From Alphaproteobacteria bacterium (lineage in GTDB: Bacteria; Pseudomonadota; Alphaproteobacteria; JASGCL01), in the NCBI GenBank assembly GCA_965203915.1, contig OZ241918.1, positions 24,639-88,638 of the forward strand: DNA of 64,000 bases, written 5' to 3'. The notes beneath the pieces are model-generated. The model was not told the DNA's origin and searched no databases. It saw only the letters and a list, made by a program, of their open reading frames with translations. A program made the position numbers and the translations under genes. This document shows, in pieces, positions 9,309-40,578 of the stretch (position 1 is the first letter of the stretch; each line of letters begins with the position of its first letter).

Positions 9309-9360
9309 CAATATAATGCGCAACCAATTCGCTGAGTGGTGGAGAAAAAATACCCCGCAA

Positions 9361-9430
9361 GCCCCCATTGCATAAACCGCGGGGGGACGGAAAATGAAGG
9401 AGTGAAGTGACTATCATTTTCCTAGGGGAG
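9361..9430. repeat. GAAAATGAAGGAG palindromic element, copy
   Basis: GCCCCCATTGC...GGGGGGACGGAAAATGAAGGAGTGA...CGACTATCATTTTCC is shared with 59341 and 59671. It has internal GAAAATGA/TCATTTTC inverted arms. Confidence 0.8.
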
Positions 9431-9483
9431 GCGTTATCATCGTTTTTAAACAACACAAATATTTAAAAAGCGATAACGCCAAA

Positions 9484-9679
9484 CTTCCCTTGTGATACAA
9501 GGGAAGAAGAAAATGAAGGAGCATAGCGTAAGCGGAGCGACTATCATTTTCAGTTAGGTTAGACGCCTTGTCAGAATATTAAATAGCGTCTTTTAGAATC
9601 TATAGCGGGGTCTAACCTATCCGTAAAACATATTCGCTTCGCTCATTGTTTTTCTCCTTCCCTTGTATCACAAGGGAAG
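9484..9679. repeat. ~200-bp composite inverted-repeat (MITE-like) element
   Basis: CTTCCCTTGTGATACAAGGGAAG at the left end and its exact reverse complement at 9657-9679. The adjacent ~30 nt are also imperfectly inverted. There is an internal AGGTTAGAC/GTCTAACCT stem and the GAAAATGAAGGAG...CGACTATCATTTTC core. Confidence 0.75.
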
Positions 9680-9769
9680 TCAGTAGCGCGCAATTTTATT
9701 CGCCACGATATTAAAGAAAGTAGTTGTTTTTAGTTGCATAGAAAAAACGAATCGTTTTAGGTGGGGAGT

Positions 9770-11182: not shown

Positions 11183-11374
11183 TGGCGGAAAAGGTATAAA
11201 ATTTTTGCCAATACCTATTGCCACCCCGCCCCTAAATCTCTTTTTTTTATTTGACACGGCGGGGCGAATCGCGCGACTATCATTATCCAATCCAGTGGGG
11301 CAAGGGCAATCAACTAGAAAAAAAAACGGATATTAACCAACCAAAACATAAAAAAAAGCAAAAGGAAAAAAACC

Positions 11375-22629: not shown

Positions 22630-22703
22630 ATAAAGGTTTTATTGACAAGCCACAAAAAAGTTTTTATAAAAAATTATCTTTTTAATAGAGCCGCAAAACA
22701 AAA

Positions 22704-23798
22704 ATGACCAACAACAACATCCTCATCTTGCCTGGCGACGGTATAGGGACCGAGGTCATGGCCGAGGTCATAAAGATCCTCTCCTACCTCAAATTAAAAA
22801 ACCTTATCAATTGGCAATGGGAAGTCGAACCCATCGGCGGTGCATGTTACGATAAATTTGGCGCGCCCATCACCGACGCCATCATGGCAAAGGCTAAAAA
22901 TGCCGCCGCCATATTGTTCGGCGCGGTGGGTGGCCCGCAATATGACAATGTGCCGCGCGATAAACGCCCCGAAGCAGCATTATTACAATTACGCAAAGAC
23001 CTTGATCTGTTTGCCAATATTCGCCCCGCCAAGGTTTTTGCCCCCTTGCTCGATGCCTCGACCTTAAAAAAAGAAATTGTTGAAAACCTTGACATCATTA
23101 TCATTCGCGAATTAACCGCGGGGGTTTATTTTGGCACGCCGCGCGGCGAACAAATATTACCCAACGGCACCAAACGGGTTATTGACACGCAAAGTTACAC
23201 CGCCGAAGAAATCATACGTATTGGGCGCGTGGGTTTTGAAACGGCGCGCCAACGCGGTAAAAAACTTCATTCGGTGGAAAAAGCCAATGTCATGGAAACG
23301 GGGGCATTCTGGCGGCGCACCATAATCGCCCTGCACCAAGAATACCCCGATGTTCAATTGCAACATATGTATGCCGACAATTGCGCCATGCAATTGATGC
23401 GCAACCCCAAACAATTCGATGTCATCGTCACCGATAATTTATTCGGCGACGTTTTGTCTGACGCCGCGGCGATGGCCACGGGCAGTTTGGGCATGTTGCC
23501 ATCGGCCAGTTTGGGCGCGCGCCGCGCCGATGGTTCGGTGCCGTCGATGTATGAACCTATCCATGGTTCGGCCCCCGATATTGCGGGCAAAAATATTGCC
23601 AACCCCCTGGCGGCGATTTTATCCCTTGCCATGTGTTGCCGTTACAGTTTTGCCAACGAAACCTTGGCGCAAAAAATTGAATCGGCCGTGGAAAAAGTTT
23701 TGGCAAACGGCATGCGCACCGCCGATATAAAAGACCCCAGCACAAAAAAAATCGCCACCACCAGCGAAATGGGTGCGGCCGTGCTGGCCGCGTTGTAA
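22704..23798 (+). CDS. leuB: 3-isopropylmalate dehydrogenase
   Basis: ILILPGDGIGTEV, LFGAVGGPQYD, NLFGDVLSDAAAMATGSLGMLPSAS. Confidence 0.95.
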   Translation: MTNNNILILPGDGIGTEVMAEVIKILSYLKLKNLINWQWEVEPIGGACYDKFGAPITDAIMAKAKNAAAILFGAVGGPQYDNVPRDKRPEAALLQLRKDLDLFANIRPAKVFAPLLDASTLKKEIVENLDIIIIRELTAGVYFGTPRGEQILPNGTKRVIDTQSYTAEEIIRIGRVGFETARQRGKKLHSVEKANVMETGAFWRRTIIALHQEYPDVQLQHMYADNCAMQLMRNPKQFDVIVTDNLFGDVLSDAAAMATGSLGMLPSASLGARRADGSVPSMYEPIHGSAPDIAGKNIANPLAAILSLAMCCRYSFANETLAQKIESAVEKVLANGMRTADIKDPSTKKIATTSEMGAAVLAAL

Positions 23799-23902
23799 AA
23801 AATAATATTGAGGTAGGCAAAAATATTGCCCCACCCACCGCAACGCCCCGCGACTGTAAGGCCGTTTGAATTTATTGATACAAGTGATATGAAGACAATA
23901 TC

Positions 23903-24925
23903 ATGGTAGAAAACACTCCCCCGCAAGAAAGTTTCTGGCAAGGTTATGCCAAGGACGGAATGGAATTCTTTAAGGAATGGTTTGATAACAACCTCACCCT
24001 GCTCGCGGAATCATTCACCAACCCTGCTCCTTCACCCAACATGGTTATCTTCCCCACCGAAACCGTGTGGGGGCTTGGTGCTTGCGCGCTTGACAATAAT
24101 GAAAACCGATTATCGTTGGATAATATCTATGAATTAAAGGGTCGCGAAAAAACAAAACCCTTCTCTATCCTTTTGTCAAACGCCCGCCTCATTAATAAAA
24201 TTGCTTGCCCAACACCCCAACAAAAAGAATTATTAGAAAACATCATCCTTGCTGGTCATCTGTTTTTGGGTAAGTTATCACTTGTTTTGCCCTACGACCC
24301 CAACAACACGCTGTGGAAACTTGCCCCCCATTGTTACAGCAACCTAGATGGTGGGCAGGCCGCTGTCTGCCTCCGCCTGCCTTGTCATCCCTTAACAAGA
24401 TTTTTTTTGCAAGCCATCGAACAACGGCTTGGTTCGCCGCTTGCCGTAACCTCGGTCAATATATCGGGGCAAAAAAATGAAGTAAAAAATATAACAGGGG
24501 CATCAGATTTTATAAATATCCATCCCGATTTTTTTCCGCAAACGCCCGACATCTATCCTTTTCAATCGCCCATCATCCATTCTTTTCAACAGATTTTTTC
24601 CAGCAACCCAAGCGCAAAAATTATTCATCCCACCCCCCATGCGCCCGTTGCTTACTATTTTTTTATACGAAACATCATCAAGCCGCTGTTAAATACCATA
24701 TGGCCATTTTATGACTTGGGCGATTCTTATGACCTTCTCTCTCAACCCATTTCCTTTGCTGAATTGTTTGCCGATATAGATAAAAAATTAATGGCCGACA
24801 AAAGATTGCATGTTGGCCAACCCTCCACCGTTCTTTCGCTGCTGGGTGATAAGCCAACAATTTTACGCCACGGTGCCGCGTCAAAAAATGAAATAGAATC
24901 AACGCTGAACATCAACATCGATTAA
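23903..24925 (+). CDS. YrdC/Sua5-family L-threonylcarbamoyladenylate synthase-like protein
   Basis: VIFPTETVWGLGACA, LKGREKTKPFSILL, LRLPCHPL, AVTSVNISGQ. It has an extended, poorly conserved C-terminal part. The start is uncertain. Confidence 0.65.
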   Translation: MVENTPPQESFWQGYAKDGMEFFKEWFDNNLTLLAESFTNPAPSPNMVIFPTETVWGLGACALDNNENRLSLDNIYELKGREKTKPFSILLSNARLINKIACPTPQQKELLENIILAGHLFLGKLSLVLPYDPNNTLWKLAPHCYSNLDGGQAAVCLRLPCHPLTRFFLQAIEQRLGSPLAVTSVNISGQKNEVKNITGASDFINIHPDFFPQTPDIYPFQSPIIHSFQQIFSSNPSAKIIHPTPHAPVAYYFFIRNIIKPLLNTIWPFYDLGDSYDLLSQPISFAELFADIDKKLMADKRLHVGQPSTVLSLLGDKPTILRHGAASKNEIESTLNINID

Positions 24926-25014
24926 TTCAAATTTGGCTTTTATTATTTAATAAATTCTTTTGACAGTGTTTTTCCCTTATGCTAAATTTTTTCGATAAAA
25001 GAAAAGGAGCAGGG

Positions 25015-26652
25015 ATGACCAACCAACAAAAATATGACGCAATAATTGTCGGCTCGGGACACAACGCTTTGGTAACCGCCAATTACTTACAACGCGCTGG
25101 TTTGTCCACTTTGGTGATTGAAAAAACGGCTCATATCGGTGGTGCCGCCACTTCCATCTCTCATTACAAAACCAAAGAGCAGGATTGGCTATACAGCAAT
25201 TGTTCCTATGTCTGCAGTTTGTTTCGGTCGGAAATTTGGCGCGATTTAGAATTAACAAAATTTGGTTTGCAAGTCATTCCCTATGAAAGTGGCGGCGTCA
25301 TTGTGGATAATGGGCGCGATTATTTTTCTACCTACGCCGACCATTATGCGCAACGCCGCGAAATTGCCCGTCATAATTTGCAAGACGTCGATGCCTACGA
25401 ACGCATCGGGCAATTTCTAACCCGCCAAGCCAGGTTTATCAAAGACCTGTTGCTGCGCACCCCGCCCGATCCCGTCAAATTGGGCATCAGCGATATTTCC
25501 GAACTTATTTTCTTGGCAAAAAAATATGGCGACCTGGGGGCCAAGGATATGGCGGAAATGATAAGGTTCTTCACCATTTCGGCGGCCGATTTCGTGCGCG
25601 AATATTTTCAAACCTCCGCCATTCAATCATTGTATGCTGGCTCGGGCATTATTGGTTCGGGCATGTCGGTCGCGTCGCCTGGCACGGCCTATGTTTTGTT
25701 GCATCATTTCATGGGCGATGTTGACGGCGTCTACGCCGCATGGGGCTATGCCCGCGGCGGCATGGGTGCCATCACCCAAGCCCTTGCCAAGTCTTATGAA
25801 TCGGTCGGCGGGAAAATAGTGGCGGGCAACGGTATCAAAGAATTTTTGGTGCGCGGCAACCAAGTGCGCGGCGTGTTGTGCGACAATGGCGATGTTTACA
25901 ACGCCAAGGTTGTTGCATCGGGCATGGACGCCCGCCAAACATTTGTCAACCACATGCCCAGCGAATATTTGCCCGACGATTTTACGGCCGCGGTCAAAAA
26001 TTTTAAATTTCGCGGTTCGTCGGGTAAATTAAATGTTGCGCTGGACGGCTTGCCCAAATTTTCTTGCATCCCTGACGATGCGGCCTGCCTTGCGGGGGAT
26101 TTGCATATGGAAGATAATTTGGATGTTTATGAACAATCTTACGATGATTGGCGTCGTGGCAATTGGTCGCGCCGCCCCTATGTTGATATGCTAATGGGCA
26201 GCCTTATCGACCCCACCATGGCGCCCCCTGGCAAACATGTTGTATCATTTTTCGTTCAATATGTGCCCTATGAATTATCAAATGGCCGCGAATGGAATGA
26301 AGAAAACAAAAAAGCCTTTGCCGATTGCGTTATCAATTCGGCGGCGCGTTATTGCGACATTAAAGAAAAAATTTTGCATATGGAGGTCCGCACACCCAAA
26401 GATATCGAGCAAGAAGTCGGCCTAACCGAAGGGAATATTTTCCAAGGCGAATTATCGCTTGACCAATTGTTATTCAATCGCCCCGTGCCAGGCTACGCCC
26501 AATATCGCAGTCCTATCAAGGGGCTTTATATTTGCGGCGCGTCCACCCACCCAGGGGGCGGCGTCATGGGTGCCAACGGCGCCAACGCGGCTCGCGAAAT
26601 TTTAAAAGATTTGAAGAAACCCCGTGTCGGCATCGCCCTTAACACCCAATAA
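25015..26652 (+). CDS. NAD(P)/FAD-dependent oxidoreductase, phytoene-desaturase (CrtI)-like family
   Basis: AGGAG 6 nt before ATG 25015. YDAIIVGSGHNALVTANYLQRAGLSTLVIEK...GGAA dinucleotide fold. C-terminal GLYICGASTHPGGGVMG. Confidence 0.75.
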   Translation: MTNQQKYDAIIVGSGHNALVTANYLQRAGLSTLVIEKTAHIGGAATSISHYKTKEQDWLYSNCSYVCSLFRSEIWRDLELTKFGLQVIPYESGGVIVDNGRDYFSTYADHYAQRREIARHNLQDVDAYERIGQFLTRQARFIKDLLLRTPPDPVKLGISDISELIFLAKKYGDLGAKDMAEMIRFFTISAADFVREYFQTSAIQSLYAGSGIIGSGMSVASPGTAYVLLHHFMGDVDGVYAAWGYARGGMGAITQALAKSYESVGGKIVAGNGIKEFLVRGNQVRGVLCDNGDVYNAKVVASGMDARQTFVNHMPSEYLPDDFTAAVKNFKFRGSSGKLNVALDGLPKFSCIPDDAACLAGDLHMEDNLDVYEQSYDDWRRGNWSRRPYVDMLMGSLIDPTMAPPGKHVVSFFVQYVPYELSNGREWNEENKKAFADCVINSAARYCDIKEKILHMEVRTPKDIEQEVGLTEGNIFQGELSLDQLLFNRPVPGYAQYRSPIKGLYICGASTHPGGGVMGANGANAAREILKDLKKPRVGIALNTQ

Positions 26653-28226
26653 TGAAGAAAGATAACAAGATGTTTAAACGCAAAAAAATTATTATTATCG
26701 GCGGTGGGGTTAATGGCTTATCGGCCGCCCTGCAATTATCGCGCGCGCCATTCGCCATGCTACGCCGCAAAATAATTATTGTGGAGGCTGACAAAACATT
26801 GGGCGGTTTGGCGCGCCACGCCGATTATTGTTATGGCTTGCCGCGCCCCATTCGCTCGCAACTTTTTTGGGGTGGTTTTAGCCTGGGCAAAAAAATGACC
26901 AGCGTTGCATTGGGTGCCAACCAAGAGCAAGTGGTGGTTGCCCCCACCCGCCGTGGCACAAAATACGTCGGCAGCGATATTAGCCTGGCTAAAAATCATC
27001 AGGCATTAGAAAAGAAAATGAAAAAATACACCAGCATTTGGCAAAAAATCGTTAACCACGCGCCGCCAAAATTTGAAGGCGGCAACACAAGTGACCTGTG
27101 CAACTTGGCATCGGCGGGTTTGGCTTTTAAATTGATGGGCAAAAAATCCCAATATGATTTTTTAAAAGTTGTTGGACAAAATGTTGATGATGTTTTTAAC
27201 GAACATCTTGCCGAAGGTAGCAGCCAAACCCTGACCAGTTTATGGAATTTCCAAAGTTACCACGGCAGTGGTCTTTACGCCACCCATTCGGGCAGCATGA
27301 CCGCATTATGGTCGCGCCAAAGCCATGATAAAAATTTGGGATTATCGGCCTACGCCTTTAATCCTGAAAAATTTTTTCGTGCTTTCGAACGGGTATTAAA
27401 ACGGCGCGGCGTAACCATTGAAACTGACAAAAAGGTTGCCGCCATCTTGTCCGAATTACAGGGCAAGGAACAAAAAATTACGGGCGTTAAATTGAGCAAT
27501 GGCACGGTGATTGTCGCCGACGCGGTGTTGTCAACCCTGGCGCCGCACCGCACCATCGAACTGGTGGGGGCCAATAATTTTGATGGCGAATTGGTGCGCC
27601 GCACGCGCCATGTGCGCGGTCGCGCGTTGGTAACAAAAATGGTTATCACGCCAAAAACCATGCCGCAAATTTTTGCCGATTATAAAAAATCCCCCGTCAG
27701 AATAATCATCACGGGCGGTCGCCAAGAATTAGAATATCAATATCTTGATAGCAAATATTTATCCTACGCCGAAGAATTCCCGATGGCCATAACTTGGCGC
27801 GCGGGCAAATTATGGTTGCAAGTATTTAACCAACCACTGCGCGCCCCACAAAATGCCGCGCAGGTTAAAACCATTGTTTTAAAACAATTGGAAAAATATT
27901 TGCCTGATTTAACGGTGGAGAAGGTCGAAGTTATTTTGCCCAACGACATGTTGCCATATGCGGGCGGCGAACATTATGACGAGGATGGCAACGCCGATTT
28001 CCCCAAAGCCCACCCCGCGGCTTGGCATCATGCCGATCTAACACTGGACCAATGTTGGGCATGGCGTCCCATCAACGGCGTGACGTCGGGGGCGTCGATT
28101 GGGTTTAGCCATTATCGCACGCCGATTAAAAACCTGTATGTCGGCGGGGCAAGTTGCCACCCAGGCGGCGACTTGCACGGTATGGCGGGGTTGTTGGCGG
28201 CAAAAACCATCCTGAAGTCTATATAA
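26652..28226 (+). CDS. second CrtI-like FAD-dependent oxidoreductase
   Basis: The ATG overlaps the upstream stop (TAATG). KIIIIGGGVNGLSAALQLS and C-terminal NLYVGGASCHPGGDLHG. Distant paralogue of the preceding gene. Confidence 0.7.
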   Translation: MKKDNKMFKRKKIIIIGGGVNGLSAALQLSRAPFAMLRRKIIIVEADKTLGGLARHADYCYGLPRPIRSQLFWGGFSLGKKMTSVALGANQEQVVVAPTRRGTKYVGSDISLAKNHQALEKKMKKYTSIWQKIVNHAPPKFEGGNTSDLCNLASAGLAFKLMGKKSQYDFLKVVGQNVDDVFNEHLAEGSSQTLTSLWNFQSYHGSGLYATHSGSMTALWSRQSHDKNLGLSAYAFNPEKFFRAFERVLKRRGVTIETDKKVAAILSELQGKEQKITGVKLSNGTVIVADAVLSTLAPHRTIELVGANNFDGELVRRTRHVRGRALVTKMVITPKTMPQIFADYKKSPVRIIITGGRQELEYQYLDSKYLSYAEEFPMAITWRAGKLWLQVFNQPLRAPQNAAQVKTIVLKQLEKYLPDLTVEKVEVILPNDMLPYAGGEHYDEDGNADFPKAHPAAWHHADLTLDQCWAWRPINGVTSGASIGFSHYRTPIKNLYVGGASCHPGGDLHGMAGLLAAKTILKSI

Positions 28227-28244
28227 ATAAAAAGGAGAACGAAC

Positions 28245-29537
28245 ATGGTCTTAGCAAAAAATAAAAATTTGGTGATGGTGGAGCGTGGTTTGGAATCATC
28301 GGTGCTGTCGCATGTTACCGACAAATTGGCAAAATCCCATGCCTTCGAGGGTTGGGTTGGTCATCGCGCCCCCGTTTTCTACGAAAGCCTGTCTGAGGAA
28401 TATTTTGCCTTGCGCAATTCGGTAGGGGTTATCGATGTATCTATCCTGCACAAATATCTTATCACGGGGAAGGACGCCGAAAGTTATGTCAACCGTTTCG
28501 TAACCCGCGACATGCGAAAGGTTAAACCGCAACGCGTTACCTATTGCCTGTGGTGTGATGAGGAAGGCATGGTGATAGACGATGGCACCATTTTCTGCCT
28601 TAGCAAAAATCAATATATGCTGACTTGCCAAGAATCACAATGGGAATGGTTGCTGAATTTGCAGGAAGGGTTCGATGTCACGATAAAGGATCTAAGCCAC
28701 GATGTCGCCGCGCTGGCGGTGCAGGGGCCTGTTGCCTATGCTTTGTTAAAACGTTTGTCGGAGACAAAGTTGGAGGGATTTGAAATACCCGATATTAAAA
28801 ACATGAAACCATTTGATATTATGGAATGGCGCGCCAACGCGGGCGGCGGGTTTACCAAACCCAGCGCGCAACATGGCATGGCGTTGATGATATCGCGCAC
28901 GGGGTTCACGGGTGATTTGGGTTATGAATTATGGTGTCATCGCGATTTGGTGGAAACATTGTGGCATTGCCTGTTCGCGGTGGGGGCGAATTTGCGTATC
29001 AAACCCGTGGGCCAGGGGGCGTTGGGGTTAACACGGGTGGAGGCTGGCTTCGTTGCCACCAACCTCGACTTCATGAGTTCGCATGTTGCGTCGCGCACCG
29101 GGCGCGGCCGCACGCCGTTTGAATTGATGATGGGCAAATTGGTGCATTTCGATAAACCATATTTCAATGGCAAGGATGCGTTGATGCGTTTGTCGGGCGG
29201 GGGCGATGAAAACATCACCCGCAAAAACTTACGCTTCGTCTTGCACCCCATCGACATTGCCACCAAGAAGGAAGCCAAGGGCTCCATCATCTACTACAAA
29301 GAAAAAATTGAATGCGGCCATGTTACATCTTCGCTATGGTCGCCGACATTGAAACGCAATGTGGGTTATGCCGAATTAAAGGCACCATACGGCATTGACA
29401 AAAAAGAAAAATTATTCGCCGAAGTATGGACGAACAAAGAAAATATGTTCGAGAAGGTTATGGCGCCCATCACCCTGTGCGACCGACCATTCTTCAACCC
29501 GCCGCGCAAAAACCAAACGCCGCCAGGGCTTACCTAG
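28245..29537 (+). CDS. aminomethyltransferase (GcvT) family protein
   Basis: AGGAG RBS. EEYFALRNSVGVIDVSILHKYLITGKDAESYVNRF, ISRTGFTGDLGYELW and EAGF are typical of the glycine-cleavage T / demethylase family. Confidence 0.8.
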   Translation: MVLAKNKNLVMVERGLESSVLSHVTDKLAKSHAFEGWVGHRAPVFYESLSEEYFALRNSVGVIDVSILHKYLITGKDAESYVNRFVTRDMRKVKPQRVTYCLWCDEEGMVIDDGTIFCLSKNQYMLTCQESQWEWLLNLQEGFDVTIKDLSHDVAALAVQGPVAYALLKRLSETKLEGFEIPDIKNMKPFDIMEWRANAGGGFTKPSAQHGMALMISRTGFTGDLGYELWCHRDLVETLWHCLFAVGANLRIKPVGQGALGLTRVEAGFVATNLDFMSSHVASRTGRGRTPFELMMGKLVHFDKPYFNGKDALMRLSGGGDENITRKNLRFVLHPIDIATKKEAKGSIIYYKEKIECGHVTSSLWSPTLKRNVGYAELKAPYGIDKKEKLFAEVWTNKENMFEKVMAPITLCDRPFFNPPRKNQTPPGLT

Positions 29538-29569
29538 GCTTCACTTAAATTATCAAAAAATTGCTCCCC

Positions 29570-29650
29570 TAGGCTTCGCCTAGAACCAGGATTTTCATCT
29601 TTGTGGTTAGGGGGGTATAGTAAATATTAACGTAAAATCCTAACCGCACC
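29570..29650 (+). repeat. hairpin-AACC dispersed repeat, copy 2
   Basis: CTAGGcttcgCCTAG + AACCAGGATTTTCATCTTTGTGGTTAGGGGGGTATA..., then GGTTAGG...CCTAACC pairing. A half copy (CCTAGGCTTCAC, 29534-29545) provides the stop of the GcvT-like gene. Confidence 0.8.
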
Positions 29651-30701
29651 AACGGGCGTCAACAAACACCAACGGGCAACAACCGACCATGGCCGACCTG
29701 ACATCGACCTGACCTGGGGCCTGACCTGGGCTTGGTTGGGTGTTTTATTTTTTACCAACCCCGTTGCTGTCGCGGTTGCCATGCGGTTATACCGTGAACG
29801 AATGAACGGGGGTTGTCATATATGAATGGGGAATGAATGGGTGGGTTATGTCATGTTTGATAATTTTTGATAGGTTGGTTGTGGGGTTTGGTTGGAACTG
29901 GTTTCGAATCCGCAGCCTTGTGGTAGGCTCTGCCCGAGCAGGGTTATGTAAGTAAAGGGGATACTGACCACGAAAAAAGGGATGGTGGATTCAAAAAACC
30001 AATTTTTGCAAATTGCTTAATAAAACAAACCCAAGCCGTTTCATTACCAGCACTTGTCATGCCATTATATTTTGCGCCGTCGCTCCATCGGAAAAAAAAT
30101 GAAATGACGCAACAAAAATTTTTGACACGGAAGATTTTTTCTTTATCGCGCGACAAAAAATTCTGCCCCATGGGGACGCCATGCCCCACATCGGCAACGG
30201 GATCGCTGTTTGTGACCACGGCGATATACCCAGGGTGAATTCTTTAAGCCAGAAGCCCACCCCGCCCCGAATTGGAATTACAACACGGGGTAATGTTACG
30301 TGGTTTTTATTGCGGGGTAAGGGGACGACGACCGAGGCCTTGTTTCGCCGTTGCCTTTTTATAACGGGGTTGTTTTTAACGCAACCACCGCCAGGGGGCA
30401 AGGGGCTAGGTTTAAGCGGGCCAAACCCGCGATGATAAACATGCGCGGGGTTAACGCGGGGCAAGGCGGTCGGCCGTGTGATGAATGGTGTGCCGTTAAG
30501 CGATCCATTACCCACCAAACGGGGTGCGCCGTGCCGAATGATTGCCAAACCATCAACCAACAATAAAACCCGCGCCCTGTTGCCAACATGGATTAACAAA
30601 CCCAAAAATAACAAACAAAGGCCAGGTGGAAACGCCCATTTTTTCGCGAAAAATCAACATTCCCAATAACCACTATAAGAACAAAAATAGAACAAGTCAA
30701 G

Positions 30702-30806
30702 CAGGACGAGCCCTGCACCCAGGATCTTCAGCTTTGTGGTTATGGGGGTATATTTTAAACGCTCGCCGATTTTTTAATCTGCCACTCGCTCATAATAGAT
30801 AACCAT
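30702..30806 (+). repeat. hairpin-AACC dispersed repeat, copy 3
   Basis: GCAGGacgagcCCTGC + ACCCAGGATCTTCAGCTTTGTGGTTATGGGGGTATA..., then TGGTTAT...ATAACCA pairing. The ~45-nt core is near-identical to copy 2, with compensated stems. Confidence 0.8.
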
Positions 30807-30817
30807 CTAATTTACCC

Positions 30818-31477
30818 CTAAGGTTTTTCTGCAATCTTGCTTGCTACTTCAGCATCTGTGGTTTGTATAATACCTAGACTTTGAATAAAACCTTTGCCTT
30901 CAAATTGATTATTACTCTCTACAGAAAAATAAACTCGAACATTTTGTTTAGGATTCAAAGCAAAGCCTACCTCTTGATTACAATATGAACTTTGCCAATA
31001 ATCTCGATTGTATATAGCTACAAAAATATCCATATGCTCCATAGCGCCAACTATTAAATCGCTAAAAGATTTTTTATGATTAGCATCATCTTCTAATGAG
31101 TGCTTTGCTAAATAACACATAAATTCTCCTTTTTCTTCAATAGATTTCTTTACTGCTATGGCTCTTTTCACTACAGCATCAACATCAATATAGCTAATAA
31201 AACATTTTTTCTTATCGGTATCTTGCCATTCTCTTGGCATAGGATATGTACTTTTTCTTATCCAAGCAGTATCTTGATTGTTATATTTGGTAAGAATGTT
31301 TTCTGCTTCCATTCTAATTAAATGCCTTTTAAGCGTGTTATTATCTGTGCCTTTCCCATTATTCCTACGAGTATATTCTGTAAGCACTTCACTTAAGATT
31401 CTACCATTACCAAAAAAATTAGTTTTGTATAGATTGTTTAATATAGCTCTACATTGATTTTCTTTATTGTTATTCAT
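30818..31477 (-). CDS. winged-helix-like N-terminal domain fused to a TIR-like domain
   Basis: AAGGA 7 nt before ATG 31477 (alternative TTG at 31501). C-terminal half: KKCFISYIDVD...IEEKGEFMCYL...MDIFVAIYNRDYWQSSYCNQEVGFAL. This matches the TIR boxes (FISY, hydrophobic beta-strand, then S..[WY]C..E with the conserved Glu). Confidence 0.7.
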   Translation of the reverse strand: MNNNKENQCRAILNNLYKTNFFGNGRILSEVLTEYTRRNNGKGTDNNTLKRHLIRMEAENILTKYNNQDTAWIRKSTYPMPREWQDTDKKKCFISYIDVDAVVKRAIAVKKSIEEKGEFMCYLAKHSLEDDANHKKSFSDLIVGAMEHMDIFVAIYNRDYWQSSYCNQEVGFALNPKQNVRVYFSVESNNQFEGKGFIQSLGIIQTTDAEVASKIAEKP

Positions 31478-31522
31478 TTTATTGTCCTTATCATTATTCA
31501 AAAGCTTTATAAAATTGGTTAG

Positions 31523-31906
31523 TTAAAGAATATTTGCCACGCTTTTTTTTACTAAAAAACCACGTGTACAAGCATAGTCAAAAAAATTGCCGTCAAATTT
31601 AATTTTTTTAACATTACATTTTTTCCATCGAGTTTTAACTTCTTCGTTGGTCACTAAAGTATTGCTATTTCCTTTTGCTATTAAATAAATAAAAAGCGTT
31701 ACTAATTCTTTCCCACCCTTGTCTTTTAAAGATTGTAATTTCTTGACATTTGCTCTGTCATCTAATACTAAATCAATACCATTAGGCAATATTGATAAAG
31801 AAGGTGGCGCTACCGATAGGCTACCTGATTCGACTCCCGCTAGCGATTTTATTTTATGCAATGCGCTTTCTATTATTTCAATTTGTTCTAATAATTCTTT
31901 TGTCAT
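31523..31906 (-). CDS. small protein of unknown function (N-terminal amphipathic helix, basic C-terminal half), middle gene of TIR operon
   Basis: GGGAG 8 nt before ATG 31906, only 3 nt after the upstream stop. LLEQIEIIESALHKIK helix. The C-terminal LVTLFIYLIAKG...RGFLVKK is suggestive of an HTH or winged helix. Confidence 0.6.
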   Translation of the reverse strand: MTKELLEQIEIIESALHKIKSLAGVESGSLSVAPPSLSILPNGIDLVLDDRANVKKLQSLKDKGGKELVTLFIYLIAKGNSNTLVTNEEVKTRWKKCNVKKIKFDGNFFDYACTRGFLVKKSVANIL

Positions 31907-31909
31907 ACT

Positions 31910-32251
31910 TTAAACTCCCTTCTTGATAATATAGGTATATTTTTTAGGCTTTCCTTTTTTAAGCAAAATATTGTTTTTTACTAAAGTTTTTAGGCTTTCA
32001 TTTACTAATTGGTCAGAACCATTAAATTGACATTCTTTTAATCCCGCCTTTATTTCAGAAACATTTTTATCATTCTTAAAGAAGCCGTCCTTTGTCATTT
32101 TTTTTAACACATCAGCCATTGTTCTTTTGGGAGCATCCTTATTTCCTGTTAAATTGGAAGGCTCCTTCGTTTCAACTTTCGCATTTTTTAGCAGCGTATC
32201 AATTTTAGTTTCAATGCTATTTAATTTTTTTAATATATCATTATTATTCAT
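31910..32251 (-). CDS. small coiled-helix + winged-helix-like protein, first gene of TIR operon
   Basis: AGGAGA 7 nt before ATG 32251. The ORF track extends it to a TTG at 32284, which has no RBS. Paralogue of 12799-13167. Confidence 0.6.
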   Translation of the reverse strand: MNNNDILKKLNSIETKIDTLLKNAKVETKEPSNLTGNKDAPKRTMADVLKKMTKDGFFKNDKNVSEIKAGLKECQFNGSDQLVNESLKTLVKNNILLKKGKPKKYTYIIKKGV

Positions 32252-32433
32252 TTTTCTTTCTCCTGAATTGGTTTCGTATTGCAATTTATACGATTCTTCG
32301 ATCTAGTCCAATAAAATAAATACAACTAAAGGATTTATAAAATTTTAGTAAGGAATAATAAAAACCTAATCAGACAAGGCCAATTAATATTATCGAAAAA
32401 ATACCGCCATCGCGGGCTAATGGCAACTAGTTT

Positions 32434-32542
32434 GGTTGCAGGCAAAGCCTGCCCCTCAAGTAGCGTTAGCGATAGCGCAAATTTAATTGGTTCTAGGCGT
32501 AAGCCCGCGCTCAAGCAACGAAGTGATAGCGCAAATTTAATT
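32434..32542 (-). repeat. two tandem units (55 + 54 nt) of a hairpin-AACC-related repeat, minus orientation
   Basis: Read on the minus strand, each unit is AATTAAATTTGCGCTATC...GCAGGCtttGCCTGC-AACC (the second has a degenerate stem and CGCCTAGAACC). The unit start supplies the TAA stop of the homocysteine methyltransferase gene. Confidence 0.75.
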
Positions 32543-33604
32543 GGTGGCGTCGCCGATGGGGTCGGTGGGGGTGGGGGCCGATTTGTGGGCGTGTTTCAGG
32601 GTGTTGGGGGGAATGGGGCCGAGGATTGTTTGAATGACATCGGGGGTTATGCTATCGCGGTCGGGGTAGCGTGGGTTTTGTGCTTCGCCGCGCGCACCGT
32701 GGAGTATGGCGGTGAGGCTGGGCCCGTCGGTTCCGCAACAACCGCCAATTAAACGCGCGCCAAGGGCGTAGGCGAGTTGGCCATAATCCATCATCATGTC
32801 GGCGGTGCCGTCGAATTCGAATTGGCCATCGACATATTGGGGAATGCCGCGGTTAGCCTTCGCCACCAACAGCGGCGGGTTTTTTAATTGCATGGCGGCA
32901 AGGTGGCGTTGCCATTGCCATAGGCTGTAAACTGATTCGGCGGGGCTCTTCCCACAATTGATGCCGAATGCGACAATGTTGGGCGACATTGTTAATAATT
33001 GTTCCACGGCCTTTTCGGGGGAGATTCCCATCATGGTTTTGCCATTGGTGTCGAATGTCAGGGTGATGACGATGTTTTTTTTATTGACGATGCGGTCGGC
33101 GGCCTTGACGATGGCGGCGACTTCCTCCACCGCTGACATGGTTTCTATCCAAATAAGGTCGGCCCCCGCACGGTCGAGGGCTTCGATTTGCGCGCCGAAA
33201 CCTTCTATGGCTTCGTCCTCGCTTAATGCGCCAAGCGGCATGAGCAATTCGCCCGAAGGGCCAATGTCGCCGCCGATGAAAACGGAGCGGTCGGGCGATT
33301 TGTTTTTGATGGCTTGTTGCACATTTTCGACGGCGCGTTGGTTAAGGATGGCAAGGTCGCCCTCGGCCCTATGCAATTTTAAACGGAATGGGTTTGCGCC
33401 GAAACTGTTGGTGAGGATGATGTCGGCACCGTGTTCGATGAATTCTTCATGCACCGAAGAAATTTTTTCGGGGTGGTCGCGATTCCACAATGCTGGTTCG
33501 TCGCCCGAAATTAACCCGCGGGTGAACAGGTTTGTTCCCATGGCCCCGTCAAGCAACAAAAATCCGTTGTTGCTTTTTTCTAATTCATGGCGCAGGTCGA
33601 GCAT
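32537..33604 (-). CDS. homocysteine S-methyltransferase family protein
   Basis: LLLDGAMGTNLF, ILTNSFGAN, GINCG and IGGCCGT (zinc-Cys motifs) are typical of the Pfam S-methyl_trans domain (MmuM/BHMT/MetH N-terminal module). Confidence 0.8.
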   Translation of the reverse strand: MLDLRHELEKSNNGFLLLDGAMGTNLFTRGLISGDEPALWNRDHPEKISSVHEEFIEHGADIILTNSFGANPFRLKLHRAEGDLAILNQRAVENVQQAIKNKSPDRSVFIGGDIGPSGELLMPLGALSEDEAIEGFGAQIEALDRAGADLIWIETMSAVEEVAAIVKAADRIVNKKNIVITLTFDTNGKTMMGISPEKAVEQLLTMSPNIVAFGINCGKSPAESVYSLWQWQRHLAAMQLKNPPLLVAKANRGIPQYVDGQFEFDGTADMMMDYGQLAYALGARLIGGCCGTDGPSLTAILHGARGEAQNPRYPDRDSITPDVIQTILGPIPPNTLKHAHKSAPTPTDPIGDATN

Positions 33605-33610
33605 GGCGGG

Positions 33611-34351
33611 TTATTGATTTTTTTCCGCGGCTAGGCATTGTTGTTCGAAACCATGGCGTAATTCTTTGTCCTGCTTGAACAGACCATGGTAATGTTTGGT
33701 AATGGTGTCGACGCCGCCCTTCTCTACCCCGCGGGTTTTCATGCAAAAATGTTCGGCGGTTATCATCACGGCGACGCCGCGTGGTTTCAACGCGTGCAAA
33801 ATAGCGTCAGCAATTTGTTTGGTCATGGTTTCTTGGGTTTGTAAACGTTTGGCAAAAATTTCAACAACGCGGGCGATTTTGCTTATGCCGACAATTTTGC
33901 CCGCGGCGTGGTAAGCCACATGGGCGTGCCCAATGATGGGCGCCAAATGATGTTCGCAATGGGAATGAAACGGAATGTTGGTAAGCAAAACCATGTCGTC
34001 ATAGCCCGATGTTTCGGTGAATTGCTTGGCCAAAATATTTTCTGGCGACATGGCATAGCCGTTGAAATAATCGTCGAAGGCCTTCACCACCCGTTTGGGG
34101 GTGCCGACCAAACCATCGCGCGTGGGATCCTCGCCAATATATTCAAGCAACGTGCGCACCGCGGATTCGGCGGATTCGCGCGACACGGTGCCGCGCGGCG
34201 TGTTGCCATTGTTACCAACGGCGGATAATTTGACGGGGTTGCCACCGTTGATACCATGGTCATGGTCGGCCAACAATTGGTCGGTGCTTTGGCTGGTGGC
34301 TTGGTTGGTATGTTGATATGACATCAAAGGTTTGTTTTTTATACGCATCAC
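33611..34351 (-). CDS. folE: GTP cyclohydrolase I
   Basis: [29 protein letters not shown]. It has about 50 extra N-terminal residues relative to typical FolE. Confidence 0.9.
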
Positions 34352-34515
34352 AACATTTCCTTTTTTTGCTTCGTTGGATTATTTGGCTTAATTTTTCTGA
34401 ATGGCTTTAGCTTGATTTTTAAACCGCCGTTGTTTTATGATGTAATATGATGAGAAAGCGGGGATTTATTATTTGCGGGATTGAGAAAAATCCCATAAAT
34501 ATAATGTAATTTATT

Positions 34516-35205
34516 ATGCCCGAAAAAAAAGATTTTGTCCAGCTAGAAAAGCCCGCCGCCGAAGCCCCCACCAAACCCGCAAGCAACGATGCGGCGGGGC
34601 AACATGCGGGCGGGGCGGGGTTTATGCCGCATGATAAAACGGCGAGTGATGAGCGGCGCGAGGATAAGGCGGCGAGTGATAAGCAGCAGGCCGAGGCGAC
34701 ATTGGCATTTTATGAAGAAAAATTATTGGCGATGGCCGAAGCCCTGGCCGAAGAAAAAAAACATCGGCCACAAATTTACCCCGCCACAACCGATGGAACG
34801 GGCGCGATTGATTTTGAGCAAGCCGAAAAAACCGCGCCGCATGTTGGTAAAAAACATAGCAGGATGTGCGGCAGTGTTATCAAGGCGGCGTTTTGGTTGC
34901 ATAAAAAAAATAATGACATGGTTATCAGCGCGATTTTTTTGCAACCCCAGGCATGTTTGTTGGGGCGGGTCGCCGCCGATATAACCACCAAGGTTTTGGT
35001 GGGGGAAAATTTGGCGGGGGTAAAATTATTACGCGGGTTGTTGCGCGATTTGTTACAGGGTAAACGCGACGACATGCCCAAACCATTCGATGGTTTTAAT
35101 TGTTTTATGGCGGTGCGTTATTTGCAAAATCGGCATGGGGCTATTTTATTACCCGTCGATGTGGTAATAGAAACATGGGAAAAAGATTTAATAAAAAATG
35201 CTTAA
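34516..35205 (+). CDS. hypothetical protein, C-terminal IscU/SufU(NifU-N)-like region with a low-complexity N-terminal half
   Basis: The N-terminal ~110 aa are A/E/K-rich. The C-terminal RMCGSVI...QACLLGRVAADITTKVLVGENL...VRYLQNRHGAILL loosely follows the IscU pattern. This is a by-eye alignment only. Confidence 0.4.
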   Translation: MPEKKDFVQLEKPAAEAPTKPASNDAAGQHAGGAGFMPHDKTASDERREDKAASDKQQAEATLAFYEEKLLAMAEALAEEKKHRPQIYPATTDGTGAIDFEQAEKTAPHVGKKHSRMCGSVIKAAFWLHKKNNDMVISAIFLQPQACLLGRVAADITTKVLVGENLAGVKLLRGLLRDLLQGKRDDMPKPFDGFNCFMAVRYLQNRHGAILLPVDVVIETWEKDLIKNA

Positions 35206-35542
35206 GGACGAATTTTTAGCAAGCGTTAAGTTTGATGATAGGGGCTTGCTGCCCGTGGTGGTGCAATCGATAAAAGATAAGCAGGTGTTGATGCAAGCAT
35301 TCATGAACCGTGCGGCATTGGAGCAAACATTGGCAACGGGGCGCATGGTTTTTTGGTCACGGTCGCGCGGCGCATTGTGGGTCAAGGGCGCGACATCGGG
35401 CAATTATCAAGACTGGCAAGAATTGTTGTTGGATTGCGACGGCGATAGTTTGTTGGCGTTGGTGGTTAGCCATGGCCCCGCTTGCCACATGGGCACCGAC
35501 AGTTGCTTTCAAAGGAAATTAAGCCAGTCGCGCGGCGATTGA
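35198..35542 (+). CDS. hisI: phosphoribosyl-AMP cyclohydrolase
   Basis: GLLPVVVQ...VLMQAFMNRAALEQTLATGRMVFWSRSRGALWVKGATSGN...DCDGDSLL...GPACHMGTDSCF. Confidence 0.9.
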   Translation: MLKDEFLASVKFDDRGLLPVVVQSIKDKQVLMQAFMNRAALEQTLATGRMVFWSRSRGALWVKGATSGNYQDWQELLLDCDGDSLLALVVSHGPACHMGTDSCFQRKLSQSRGD

Positions 35543-35630
35543 GCCGCCCGCCAATGAATGTTGGATAAGAGGATTAAGCCTGATTCAAGTAAGGAACGCC
35601 GCGACAAAAAATAAATGCCACGCGGAAAAA

Positions 35631-36737
<1,107 letters not shown>

Positions 36738-36764
36738 TTATAATCAATATATTATTATCTTTGA

Positions 36765-37277
36765 TTATTTTTTAATAAAGTTTTTCGCCAATTCCAAAAA
36801 TAATTTTTTTTGGTCATTGTCGGTAATTTTATTGTAAGCAACCACCAATTCCAACACATCTTTGCGTTTGAATGGGTCATTGGCCGCCGCGCCCGTTCTT
36901 TCATAACCCCTGCTTGAATTGGCGGGGTCAAATACGCCTTCGACATTATCATTGTCTGCCATGCCCGCGGTTTGCTTGGGCATCAAATCAACGAATAATT
37001 TCTTCGTGTCGGCGGTGATATCTTGAAAAAAGAAGTCGATGGGGGTTTGCAAAATCAACGACAATTCATACAAGCGCGAACAACCAATACGGTTGCTGCC
37101 GCGTTCATATTTTTGCACTTGTTGAAAGCTTATGCCAAGCAATTCGGCAAGGTCGGTTTGCGTTAAGCGCAACATTTTGCGTCTTAAACGGATACGATCA
37201 CCCACATGTTTATCAATTGGGTGAGCAGTTTCATCATCGACCAAGTCAATGATGGCTGCGAGAGATTTTTTTACCAT
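36765..37277 (-). CDS. XRE-family helix-turn-helix transcriptional regulator
   Basis: VGDRIRLRRKMLRLTQTDLAELLGISFQQVQKYERGSNRIGCSRLYELSLIL is a canonical Cro/C1-type HTH. Confidence 0.8.
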   Translation of the reverse strand: MVKKSLAAIIDLVDDETAHPIDKHVGDRIRLRRKMLRLTQTDLAELLGISFQQVQKYERGSNRIGCSRLYELSLILQTPIDFFFQDITADTKKLFVDLMPKQTAGMADNDNVEGVFDPANSSRGYERTGAAANDPFKRKDVLELVVAYNKITDNDQKKLFLELAKNFIKK

Positions 37278-37963
37278 TTTTTTATCCTATAAAAATTAGT
37301 TGATATTGAGGTATTTGCCCCATTTATGCCCTGCCCCAGTGTATGCCCGTTTGCGTCCCGTTTTAGCCCCGCGCCCTCCATGTCCTTGAATGTCCCGCCC
37401 TCATGGTTATCCCTTTTTATGGTCAGCCCAAAAAATCTATATAAAATATATAAATATTAATGAATTATTACCAGCGGGTCCCTTAATAAGCTATAAGACA
37501 AACTAAACAAATGAATAATGTCGCGAGTTACAAAACGCCATCAAACATACTATTTATTAGTTTCTTCCCAAACCGTTTTATTTTTATAGCAAAAACTTTT
37601 GATGCAATCAAGAATTTTATTCAATTTTGAATAAAATTCTCTTTTAATGCACATTTCTTCCTGTGTATAAAATATTAACAACAATGAAGGGGTATTATTT
37701 TTTAACCTTTCAAAAATCCTCTTTCGCCCATTGGGAAATCTTGCTAAAGATTTGCTACAACCTGTAAACAAAAAATAGCAGACCCTTTTCATGATACTAT
37801 ATCAATAATAGCGCAATATTTAGGATTAATTTCATTAAAATTCAAAGATTTATGTTAAAATCTTGAATTGTTGGTAAAAATCAAATATAATAAAAAATAT
37901 CAAGAAATATTCTTATAAAAATCAATTATTTTCTACTCATTCCCTCCTGTTTTACTTCCCAAC

Positions 37964-39847
37964 ATGACTAAACTTCGTTCTCACACCACCACCCACGGTC
38001 GGAACATGGCTGGGGCGCGTGGGTTGTGGCGCGCCACGGGGATGAAGGATGGCGATTTCGGCAAACCCATTATTGCGGTGGTTAATAGCTTCACCCAATT
38101 TGTTCCAGGCCATGTGCATTTGAAAGATCTGGGCCAGATGGTGGCGCGCGAAATAGAAAAAAGCGGCGGCGTAGCCAAAGAATTCAACACCATTGCGGTC
38201 GATGACGGTATTGCCATGGGGCATGATGGCATGCTTTACAGTTTGCCATCGCGCGAACTTATCGCCGATTCGGTCGAATACATGGTTAACGCCCATTGCG
38301 CCGATGCCATGGTTTGCATTTCCAATTGTGATAAAATTACGCCTGGCATGTTGATGGCGGCGATGCGTATCAACATTCCCACCATATTTGTATCGGGCGG
38401 CCCGATGGAGGCTGGCAAAATCAATTGGAACAAAGCAACAGGCCATGTCGCCACCAATGGGGACGGCACAGTGAGGAAGGTTGACCTGGTCGATGCGATT
38501 GTTGAAGCCACCAACGACAAATTATCGGACGAAGAAATTGAGACCATCGAGAAGTCGGCTTGCCCAACCTGTGGCTCTTGCTCGGGCATGTTTACCGCCA
38601 ACAGCATGAATTCGCTGACCGAGGCTTTGGGCTTGTCCTTGCCTGGCAACGGGTCGTTGCTTGCCACCCATGCTTTGCGCAAAGAATTATTTTTGCAAGC
38701 GGGCCGAACAATTGTTGACCTGTGCAAGGAATTTTATGAAAAAGAAAATAGCGCGGTGTTGCCACGCTCCATCGCCAATTTTCAGGCATTTGAAAATGCC
38801 ATGACGCTTGATATTGCCATGGGCGGTTCAACCAACACCGTGTTGCATTTGCTTGCCATTGCTCATGAGGCTGGTTGTGATTTCAGCATGAAGGATATTG
38901 ATAGATTGTCCAAAAAAGTGCCAACGATTTGTAAGGTATCGCCCGCCACCAGCCTTTACCATATGGAGGATGTTCACCGTGCGGGCGGCATTGTTGGTAT
39001 TTTGGCCGAATTGAATCGCGGCGGACTCATCCACCATCAATTGCCCACCGTGCATAGCAAAACCTTGCTGGAGGCCTTAAACCATTGGGATATTATGGTT
39101 AGCAATCAAAAAGATGTTTCAGAATTTTACCGCGCCGCCCCTGGCGGGGTGCGCACCACCGAGGCCTTTTCGCAAAACCGTCAATACCCCGATCTGGATA
39201 ATGACCGCAAAAATGGCTGCATCCGTTCGGTGGAGCATGCTTATAACAAAGAAGGGGGTTTGGCGGTGTTGTATGGTAATTTGGCGCCCGACGGGTCGAT
39301 TGTAAAAACCGCGGGGGTTGATGAGAAAATTTTTAGCTTCGTTGGCCCCGCCAAAATTTATGAAAGCCAGGATTCGGCTTGCCGCGCCATTTTGGAAAAG
39401 AAAATTGTGCCAGGCGATGTGGTGATTATAAGATACGAAGGGCCCAAGGGTGGGCCAGGCATGCAAGAAATGCTTTACCCCACCAGTTATTTAAAATCGA
39501 TGGGTTTGGGCAAGGATTGCGCCTTGATAACCGATGGTCGGTTTTCGGGCGGCACGTCGGGCCTTTCGATTGGCCATGTCTCGCCCGAAGCCGCCGCGGG
39601 CGGGTTGATAGGTTTGGTGGAAGAAGGCGACGAAATTGTTATCAACATTCCCAAGCGTCAATTGTCATTGAATGTTGCGGCGCAAGAAATTGAAAAAAGG
39701 AAAATGACCGAACAGCAACGGGGTCGTGCCGCCTTCACCCCGCGGGAGGAGCGAACAAGAAAAGTTTCGGCAGCCTTGCGCAGTTATGCAGCCATGACAA
39801 CATCGGCCGCGACGGGCGCGGTGCGCGACGTAAGTTTGGTGGAATGA
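37964..39847 (+). CDS. ilvD: dihydroxy-acid dehydratase
   Basis: [52 protein letters not shown]. Confidence 0.95.
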
Positions 39848-39924
39848 AATCAACAAACATAAGTCCAGGAAATAAAATTGAACATACCAACCCAACCAAA
39901 TAAAAAAACCAAGCAGCCCAACCG

Positions 39925-40566
39925 ATGAGTGATAATAAAGATCCTGTGATAGATTATGACTTGATTGTCACCAACCAATTGCGTGCCGTGGTGCCCGCGG
40001 TGTTGCGCAAGGTATTAGAAAAAAACGCCAACGCGACCGAAATACCAAGCCCGCATTATTTTTACATTAGTTTTAATACCCGCGCGCCAGGGGTGGTCAT
40101 GCCGTCTTACCTCAAAAGCCAATACCCCGAGGAAATGACGGTTGTGTTGCAATATCAATTTTGGAATTTGGTGGTCACCGACAAGGAATTTTCGGTGGTT
40201 TTAAGTTTCGGCAAAACCCCTGCCGCCATCACCATTCCTTATCAATCTATTGTTCAATTTTCTGACCCCGCGGTCAATTTTATGTTAAGGTTTGATGACG
40301 AGGAAAGCGAAGGCGATGCTGCCACGCCAACCCCGCCTTTATCGAACCCCCATATTCCCCATAAACAAAGCAACCTGCCTCTGGGCTCGGCTTCATCCCA
40401 TGCTTCATCCCATGGGCATGATGTATCAGCCAAGCAACCGTCAAGGGGCGCAACGCCACCAAGCGACAAGCAAAAAAATAACGAAGCGATTGACGGCGAT
40501 CCCGCGCCAACATCGAATGTGGTTTCTTTGGCCGAATTTCGTCGGCAACGGCCTCATAAGAAATAA
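39925..40566 (+). CDS. sspB: ClpXP adaptor SspB (alpha-proteobacterial type)
   Basis: YFYISFNTRAPGVVMPSYLKSQYPEEMTVVLQYQFWNLVV...IPYQSIVQFSDPAVNFMLRF is collinear with my recollection of Caulobacter SspB-alpha. A disordered linker is followed by a basic C-terminal tail. Confidence 0.8.
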   Translation: MSDNKDPVIDYDLIVTNQLRAVVPAVLRKVLEKNANATEIPSPHYFYISFNTRAPGVVMPSYLKSQYPEEMTVVLQYQFWNLVVTDKEFSVVLSFGKTPAAITIPYQSIVQFSDPAVNFMLRFDDEESEGDAATPTPPLSNPHIPHKQSNLPLGSASSHASSHGHDVSAKQPSRGATPPSDKQKNNEAIDGDPAPTSNVVSLAEFRRQRPHKK

Positions 40567-40578
40567 GGGACGCAACCC

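Follow-up and report, generated by a model that had tools for sequence, protein, structure and literature searches.

A 64,000-nucleotide (nt) stretch of an alphaproteobacterial genome (contig OZ241918.1, positions 24,639 to 88,638; the whole stretch is called the window below) contains three minus-strand genes, here designated A, B and C, that lie head to tail among genes of core metabolism. The C-terminal half of protein C has the features of a TIR domain, and the two small proteins encoded by A and B match no family. A sequence-only reading had picked out these genes as a candidate undescribed TIR-based module. The present analysis concerns the identity of the three proteins, their conservation, the genomic site at which their genes reside and the function that they may have.

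The three open reading frames (ORFs) are tightly packed (coordinates in Table 1). Genes A and B are separated by 3 nt (TAA AGT ATG) and genes B and C by 45 nt, or by 21 nt with the TTG start of C, and each ATG follows at 7-8 nt a Shine-Dalgarno sequence of its own (AGGAGA for A, GGGAG for B and AAGGA for C). Alignment with the orthologs of a second locus, described below, favors the ATG starts. The block that holds them (30753-32440) has a GC content of 30.3%, compared with 47.5% in the flanks and 46.4% in the window as a whole. Its neighbors encode two FAD oxidoreductases, a GcvT-like aminomethyltransferase, a homocysteine S-methyltransferase, GTP cyclohydrolase I, HisI, IlvC and IlvD. The packing, the spacing, the Shine-Dalgarno sequences and the marked AT-richness relative to these core-metabolism genes had all been described from the sequence alone, and each was borne out by the ORF list and a reading of the sequence; the motifs quoted at the time (KKCFISY, MDIFVAIY and SSYCNQEVGFAL) are present exactly as given.

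At the composition of the triad, with a stop-codon frequency of ~9%, a stop is expected every ~11 codons, and the per-start chance of an open run is ~2e-5 for 114 codons, ~4e-6 for 128 codons and ~6e-10 for 220 codons. Because these probabilities are so low at 30.3% GC, A, B and C are not chance ORFs. Promoter-like sites were no more numerous than expected from shuffled sequence, and the TTGGCC-17-TATTAT match upstream of A is a plausible site. Genes A and B were also found to share a reading frame that is split only by TAA AGT (31907-31912). A read-through fusion of the two is not conserved, since the orthologous genes of the second locus overlap by 8 nt in different frames.

Domains of protein C

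By its sequence and modeled fold, the C-terminal half of protein C is a genuine TIR domain of the type that cleaves nicotinamide adenine dinucleotide (NAD). The Pfam profile TIR_2 (PF13676) scored 27.2 bits on residues 101-189 of C, against a cutoff of 28, and 38.2 bits on an ortholog, P0002, that is 53% identical to C. A profile built from 16 aligned C-family sequences matched at least 50 TIR chains in the PDB, with E-values of 5.2e-7 for Cat1 (9mud), 3e-4 for a plant ADP-ribosyl cyclase TIR and 3.9e-4 for SpbK (9phb), and with further matches to L6, SARM1, ROQ1, AbTIR and TIR-STING. The motif S-x-[W/Y]-C-x-Q-E-x-G is preserved across the 16 sequences, and A106, S163, E169 and G171 are invariant among them. 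Profile alignments pair the motif Glu of C with the Glu of SDWCWDE in Cat1 and of SSWCLDE in the plant TIR, and by the range of the ROQ1 match (profile positions 96-168 on residues 13-87) it corresponds to ROQ1 E86, which we take to be the catalytic Glu of that protein.

In an AlphaFold2 model computed from the 16-sequence alignment (mean predicted local distance difference test score, pLDDT, of 76), the TIR core reaches a pLDDT of 87-96 over residues ~81-130 and 141-170, and the strands at 90-97, 119-126, 151-155 and 181-186 alternate with helices in a flavodoxin-like topology. When this model was compared with the PDB using Foldseek, TIR and other flavodoxin-like folds were returned at E-values of 2e-3 to 2e-2 and with template modeling scores to the target of 0.5-0.7; the TIR matches comprised B. 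cereus TIR 8fz9, 8w8m, 4c6t, 5uzb and ThsB 9b7d, with MyD88, RPS4 and MAL among them. The earlier proposal of a TIR domain whose motif Glu is of the catalytic type is therefore well founded: it was to be given up if neither a TIR profile match nor a flavodoxin-like fold turned up, and both were found.

The N-terminal part of C fared differently. It had been labeled a winged helix, and this label was not confirmed. Residues 1-88 are modeled as three helices (3-21, 25-38 and 46-65) at a pLDDT of 41-70 with no wing, and a profile of the domain gave no significant match in the PDB or Pfam, to winged helix-turn-helix families or to others. A helix-turn-helix type is a guess that may be made from the residue pattern. 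The C-terminal domain of A and the N-terminal domain of C showed a weak in-register similarity (hhalign E 0.0085), which in shuffle tests gave p-values of 0.005-0.23; the value of 0.005 was reached in one of four ortholog pairs, and the others were not significant. The similarity is a hint that these two domains may have a common ancestry. A wider paralogy that would also take in the C-terminal domain of B was considered and not established, as only the comparison of A with C gave a signal, and a weak one, in hhalign and the shuffles.

Conservation of the triad and its two small proteins

The order A-B-C recurs on the 2,036-bp Logan contig SRR13639655_3025 (locus L001). The search for the same gene neighborhood in other genomes, which the sequence-only reading had put forward as a check, thus found the triad once more. 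The second A protein has 119 residues (31% identity, E 1e-17), the second B protein 132 residues (31% identity, E 8e-11), and the second C protein, the ortholog P0002 mentioned above, 245 residues. At this locus A and B overlap by 8 nt, and a 4-nt spacing follows. The three genes are thus found together elsewhere, and each of them is under constraint at the protein level.

Proteins A and B are built on a common plan, consisting of an N-terminal helix of ~20 residues with a strict 3-4 hydrophobic spacing, a linker and a C-terminal domain of ~65 residues. In A (isoelectric point, pI, of 9.8) the amphipathic helix follows a heptad (a/d) pattern over its ~20 residues, the linker is polar and the ~65-residue C-terminal domain is basic; in B (pI 9.4) a heptad helix comes first, the linker is rich in Pro and Ser, and the C-terminal domain has the conserved motifs IAKGN and WKK. 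The heptad of A (positions 6/7-10-13-17-20/21-24) is kept in its ortholog, and that of B (5/6-9-12-16-19-22/23) is identical in both orthologs. The pI values of the orthologs are 10.1 for A and 8.6 for B. The amphipathic N-terminal helices and the basic C-terminal halves ascribed to both proteins from the sequence thus stand, the helices being conserved as heptads. Neither protein, searched in full or as isolated domains, had a match in Pfam, PADLOC, PHROG or NCBIfam. In the PDB no profile match was found for B, and the sole match in the C-terminal domain of A was to ArsR and was not significant (E 0.6, residues 46-97). A single-sequence AlphaFold model of B had a pLDDT of 41.5 and was unusable.

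The family is very rare. Word-index homolog searches with C returned C itself and one ortholog, and those with A and B returned the queries alone. When 1.84 billion representative proteins were searched with C using phmmer, 15 proteins were found at E<=1e-3, and those other than the query aligned mainly over the TIR part at 25-36% identity. The genomic contexts of five of these distant TIR relatives (P0005, P0006, P0007, P0010 and P0014) held no A- or B-like partners, the genes being stand-alone or having unrelated neighbors. Pattern and tblastn scans with the C, A and B profiles over genome, metagenome and viral contig collections uncovered no further members, tblastn of C against plasmids and phages gave no match, and no relative of C was present in any GTDB representative genome, including the closest genome to the present one (L003, see below). 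Three candidates were examined and rejected. Locus L087 was a chance match to a 21-residue helix inside an ion-channel-like ORF, and L085 and L086, picked up in a scan with back-translated YCNQEVGF, were chance matches as well, neither being a TIR.

Among the 14 distant TIR relatives, six (P0007, P0008, P0011, P0012, P0013 and P0017) end in an acidic tail of the form D-[D/E]-[I/L/F]-[P/D]-F, for example DDIPF or DDEIPF. This tail resembles the C-terminal tip of bacterial SSB (the protein that binds single-stranded DNA), a recruiter of genome-maintenance proteins, and could mimic the SSB tail on a TIR protein. No description of an SSB-like tail on TIR proteins came up in a literature search. 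Protein C of the window itself does not have such a tail.

A variable genomic site

The site of the triad was compared in three genomes: the window and two related metagenome-assembled genomes (MAGs). The closest genome found, the MAG CBDHFT01 (L003, ~94% nucleotide identity by blastn), is syntenic with positions 22703-29567 and 32441-41157 of the window. Between these two stretches it has 970 unrelated bases where the window has 2,873. They hold a single AT-rich ORF (9233-9985, minus strand of that locus) encoding a 250-residue protein with two CxxC pairs, which matches only PHROGs of unknown function (phrog_26326 at 8.7e-9 and phrog_19960 at 1.8e-7) and is a candidate for an unknown defense gene or a phage-derived gene. 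At the same site in a MAG from a sea cave (L004, ~75% identity) lies a gene (9039-11207) for a GmrSD type IV restriction enzyme of 722 residues (Pfam GmrSD_N 8.8e-34 and GmrSD_C 7.2e-21; PADLOC 2.6e-122, Orf5/HEC-06/SspE-like). The three genomes thus carry three different cargoes, the TIR triad, an unrelated 250-residue gene and GmrSD, beside a homocysteine S-methyltransferase that is 98% identical to that of the window in L003 and 73% identical in L004. The triad is strain-specific, horizontally acquired cargo at a variable site. Since this site holds GmrSD in a relative, a defense role of the triad becomes more likely, and we regard this as the strongest new support for such a role.

Directly downstream of C lies a stretch of ~1.2 kb (29568-30752) with 49% GC and no credible ORF. 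It falls in the region that is missing from the ~94%-identical genome and is framed by two copies of a 41-nt direct repeat (29579-29619 and 30712-30752), which are 85% identical and are the only ones in the window. Neither plasmids nor any of the loci retrieved contain a match to the stretch, and its RNA folding z-scores of -1.9 and 0.0 indicate no strong structure. Rfam searches over 29400-32600, even at E<=1, returned nothing but two matches at chance level. The stretch could be decayed earlier cargo or some other element.

At the other end of the cargo, a 24-nt repeat, ACCAATTAAATTTGCGCTATC[A/G]CT on the minus strand, is present at 32468-32491 and 32522-32545. The final codons of the homocysteine S-methyltransferase gene, with its stop, are thereby duplicated 54 nt downstream, and several copies are found at the same place in L003 (~9060-9200). 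No copy was seen on the far side of the island. The repeat could be a scar of repeated insertions at the hotspot, resembling an attachment (att) site.

Elsewhere in the window, an HTH_3 gene and ilvD are separated by a second AT-rich patch (~37250-38000, GC 0.28-0.34), which is probably no island but a divergent promoter region, since it lies inside a stretch that aligns continuously with L003 (window 35631-41157). Among 40 ORFs of the window that encode at least 150 residues and were scanned with PADLOC, one was matched at ~1e-150 by the PADLOC models for type II and orphan methyltransferases. This ORF may encode a CcrM-like orphan methyltransferase of a kind common in Alphaproteobacteria; the top 25 families listed for these ORFs included no other defense family.

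Table 1. Features of the triad locus and its flanks (window coordinates).
Feature	Coordinates	Strand	Remarks
Gene A	31910..32251	-	113 aa from ATG; 124 aa if TTG at 32284 is used
Gene B	31523..31906	-	127 aa; Shine-Dalgarno GGGAG
Gene C	30818..31477	-	219 aa from ATG; 227 aa if TTG at 31501 is used
N-terminal-domain coding part of gene C	31214..31477	-	Residues 1-88; three predicted helices
TIR-domain coding part of gene C	30848..31213	-	Residues ~89-210
Predicted catalytic Glu169 codon (GAG), gene C	30973-30971	-	Read from the sequence
Sigma-70-like promoter match TTGGCC-17-TATTAT	32355..32383	-	~100 nt upstream of gene A
Terminator-like hairpin of the upstream methyltransferase gene	32427-32403		Precedes the promoter match
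Hotspot cargo	29568..32440	no strand	1.2-kb ORF-less part (49% GC) and 1.7-kb AT-rich triad
GcvT-like aminomethyltransferase (left flank)	28245..29537	+	Pfam GCV_T 2.7e-52; kept in L003 and L004
Homocysteine S-methyltransferase (right flank)	32537..33604	-	Pfam S-methyl_trans 3.2e-55

Possible function and relation to known TIR systems

On balance, we lean towards the view that the triad would be a horizontally acquired anti-phage module of the abortive-infection type, with C as its effector and A and B as gating subunits. TIR NADases need to oligomerize, as do for example SARM1, SPARTA, TIR-STING and Cat1. Precedents for the proposed module are SpbK, in which an N-terminal sensor domain is joined to a TIR NADase, and the two-gene TIR systems of E. 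coli, both taken up below. From sequence and by analogy, we infer a NADase activity of C, a defense phenotype of the module and the roles of A and B as follows. The triad would lie in a defense hotspot of an uncultured alphaproteobacterium, flanked by the gcvT-like gene and the homocysteine-methyltransferase gene. Bringing the TIR domains of C together is predicted to let it consume NAD+ via E169. A and B would act as non-catalytic subunits, paired through their N-terminal heptad helices as a homo- or hetero-oligomeric coiled coil, and their basic C-terminal domains may bind a trigger, such as phage nucleic acid or protein, or may hold the N-terminal domain of C, and the timing of TIR oligomerization would thereby be under the control of A and B. 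The TIR protein is favored as the effector because A and B showed no effector domain of the signal-receiving kind, and the gating role is given to these two because they have no detectable signal-binding or effector domain and the window shows no sign of a ThsA-type partner.

Several points weigh against this view. The TIR_2 score of C itself is 0.8 bit below the Pfam cutoff. The Foldseek E-values are weak (~2e-3), which can be put down to the poorly predicted N-terminus included in the model, and PADLOC gives C just a weak ThsB-like match (E 0.013). A recognized defense gene occupies the site in just one of the two comparison genomes. The triad is known from two loci only, and the statistics of co-occurrence are minimal. 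Proteins A and B are without detectable domains, a usable model or homologs besides the orthologs at L001, and the sensor or regulator role suggested for them is purely conjectural.

A more specific proposal, which we consider doubtful, is that A and B form a new kind of small coiled-coil pair, sensors or adaptors, that would template an active NADase oligomer of C once their basic domains recognize phage-derived nucleic acid or protein, or else that a signal made by the TIR domain acts on A or B as a minimal effector of a new type.

The first alternative to the preferred abortive-infection module is Thoeris-like signaling, in which C would not deplete NAD+ and would instead make a nucleotide messenger (an isomer of cyclic ADP-ribose, histidine-ADP-ribose or similar) that switches on A, B or an effector encoded elsewhere in the genome. 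Signal generation is known from many bacterial TIRs, and ThsB (9b7d) is in the Foldseek list of C. Furthermore, the sole matches of C in PADLOC and NCBIfam are of the ThsB type. These are weak, however: PADLOC ThsB matched C at E 0.013 (13.4 bits) and the ortholog P0002 at 2.6e-6, the NCBIfam model of Thoeris type III ThcB4 matched C at E 0.006 with 15.5 bits, far below its cutoff of 220, and Pfam ThsB_TIR scored 14.1 bits on the ortholog against 21.2. In addition, no ThsA-type match was among the top 25 families listed by PADLOC for 40 other ORFs of the window. Proteins A and B, for their part, are small, basic and soluble-looking, and have no SLOG, Macro, SIR2, SAVED, CARF, transmembrane or other recognizable effector or ligand-binding domain. 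We therefore consider it rather unlikely that the triad works in this manner.

A toxin-antitoxin or addiction module, with C as a TIR toxin and A and/or B as an antitoxin that keeps it in check and possibly as a transcriptional autoregulator, would mainly serve to stabilize the island and less to sense phages. The compact layout, with small genes upstream and an enzyme downstream, would suit such a module, as would the basic nature of A and B (pI 9.4-10.1), which may allow them to bind DNA, the AT-rich and horizontally acquired islet in which they lie and the finding that A, B and C alone are conserved together. Two different small partners would nevertheless be atypical, the islet contains no mobility or plasmid genes to stabilize, and we know of no established class of TIR toxins in classical type II toxin-antitoxin pairs. 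Addiction and abortive-infection functions also overlap, such that this alternative and the preferred view are not cleanly separable. We judge the alternative unlikely.

Least probable in our view is that the locus has no defense function, the TIR serving interaction or regulation without enzymatic activity, or the islet being a functionless or decaying acquired remnant: the extreme rarity of the family (two loci, and 15 phmmer matches in 1.84 billion representatives) and the decayed look of the adjacent ORF-less 1.2 kb would fit, but three ORFs have stayed intact despite a stop-codon frequency of ~9%, their proteins are conserved over a large divergence (31-53% identity), the catalytic-type Glu and its surrounding motif are invariant, and the Shine-Dalgarno sequences are intact.

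The early picture of an undescribed winged-helix-TIR defense or toxin module can thus be kept in part. The TIR domain, the conserved triad and the lack of a described match stand, and a defense role is likely given the hotspot with GmrSD; the winged helix was not confirmed. We conclude that the triad is probably a rare, undescribed variant among TIR-based anti-phage systems, as far as can be judged from sequence comparison. TIR domains are an immune currency common to bacteria, plants and animals, and what sets the systems that use them apart is the way in which the TIR is activated. In the triad, a catalytic-type TIR is coupled with two conserved small proteins matching no family. If functional, the triad would extend the TIR repertoire by a new architecture of activation, and the gcvT/mmuM intergenic site would stand out as a defense hotspot of an uncultured, streamlined lineage of Alphaproteobacteria (~1.6 Mb contig). 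If A and B do act as a sensor or adaptor pair, the triad would be a TIR system of three components whose sensing logic is new. The general importance is limited by the extreme rarity of the family, of which two loci are present in public data.

The sequence-only reading could not map the operon onto Thoeris, CBASS-TIR, SPARTA, Pycsar-TIR or retron-TIR, and the comparison made here agrees with it, the defining features of each being absent from the triad. No ThsA-like gene, cyclase, STING, Argonaute, reverse transcriptase or NTPase, whose absence from the operon had also been remarked on, was among the Pfam, PADLOC, PHROG and NCBIfam matches. The ThsB proteins of Thoeris (types I-IV) are, like C, small TIR proteins in defense islands, and C has weak ThsB profile matches and ThsB in its Foldseek list. 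However, no ThsB-family match of C is above cutoff, the scores being far below the thresholds, and no ThsA-type effector (SIR2-SLOG, Macro-TM [transmembrane] or other ThsA/ThcA) is adjacent: the partners are the unannotated 113- and 127-residue proteins without matches, and the flanks are metabolic. As to CBASS-TIR and Pycsar-TIR, no CD-NTase, pyrimidine cyclase, STING/SAVED or cyclic nucleotide monophosphate-binding domain was found in A, B or C. For SPARTA and short prokaryotic Argonaute-TIR systems, no Piwi/MID or APAZ match was found and C has just 219 residues, and for retron-TIR there is no reverse transcriptase ORF and no Rfam match of the msr/msd type.

Cat1 is the best PDB match to the TIR domain of C, and its F-S-H/Y strand and S-x-WC-x-x-E motif align with those of C. 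It is an NAD+-degrading TIR that acts in filaments, but it carries a fused CARF sensor and relies on cyclic oligoadenylate signaling by type III CRISPR, whereas the triad has neither a CARF domain nor a CRISPR context. SpbK of the B. subtilis element ICEBs1 resembles C in having an N-terminal non-catalytic domain of ~90-100 residues and a C-terminal NADase-type TIR, and in lying on horizontally acquired DNA. The NADase of SpbK is activated by binding of the phage portal protein YonE (PMC11984713). Full-length homology to SpbK is absent, since the match to C covers the TIR region and a short upstream stretch (E 3.9e-4) and the N-terminal domains have no detectable relation. Furthermore, a single gene suffices for SpbK, whereas the TIR gene of the triad follows two small conserved genes.

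The closest class by concept is found in E. coli, where a catalogue lists 64 TIR clusters and nine systems new at the time, TIR-I to TIR-IX, have been validated as anti-phage (Wang et al. 2024, PMC11350192). Five of the nine consist of two genes, and these depend on both genes and on the active site of the TIR and show a phenotype resembling abortive infection (PMC11350192). The TIR genes of these systems have zero or one partner gene, which like those of the triad is unannotated. Compared by description, these systems have one or two genes and the triad has three, with putative coiled-coil small subunits. The triad belongs conceptually with the TIR systems that have unannotated partners, a class that is already well populated.

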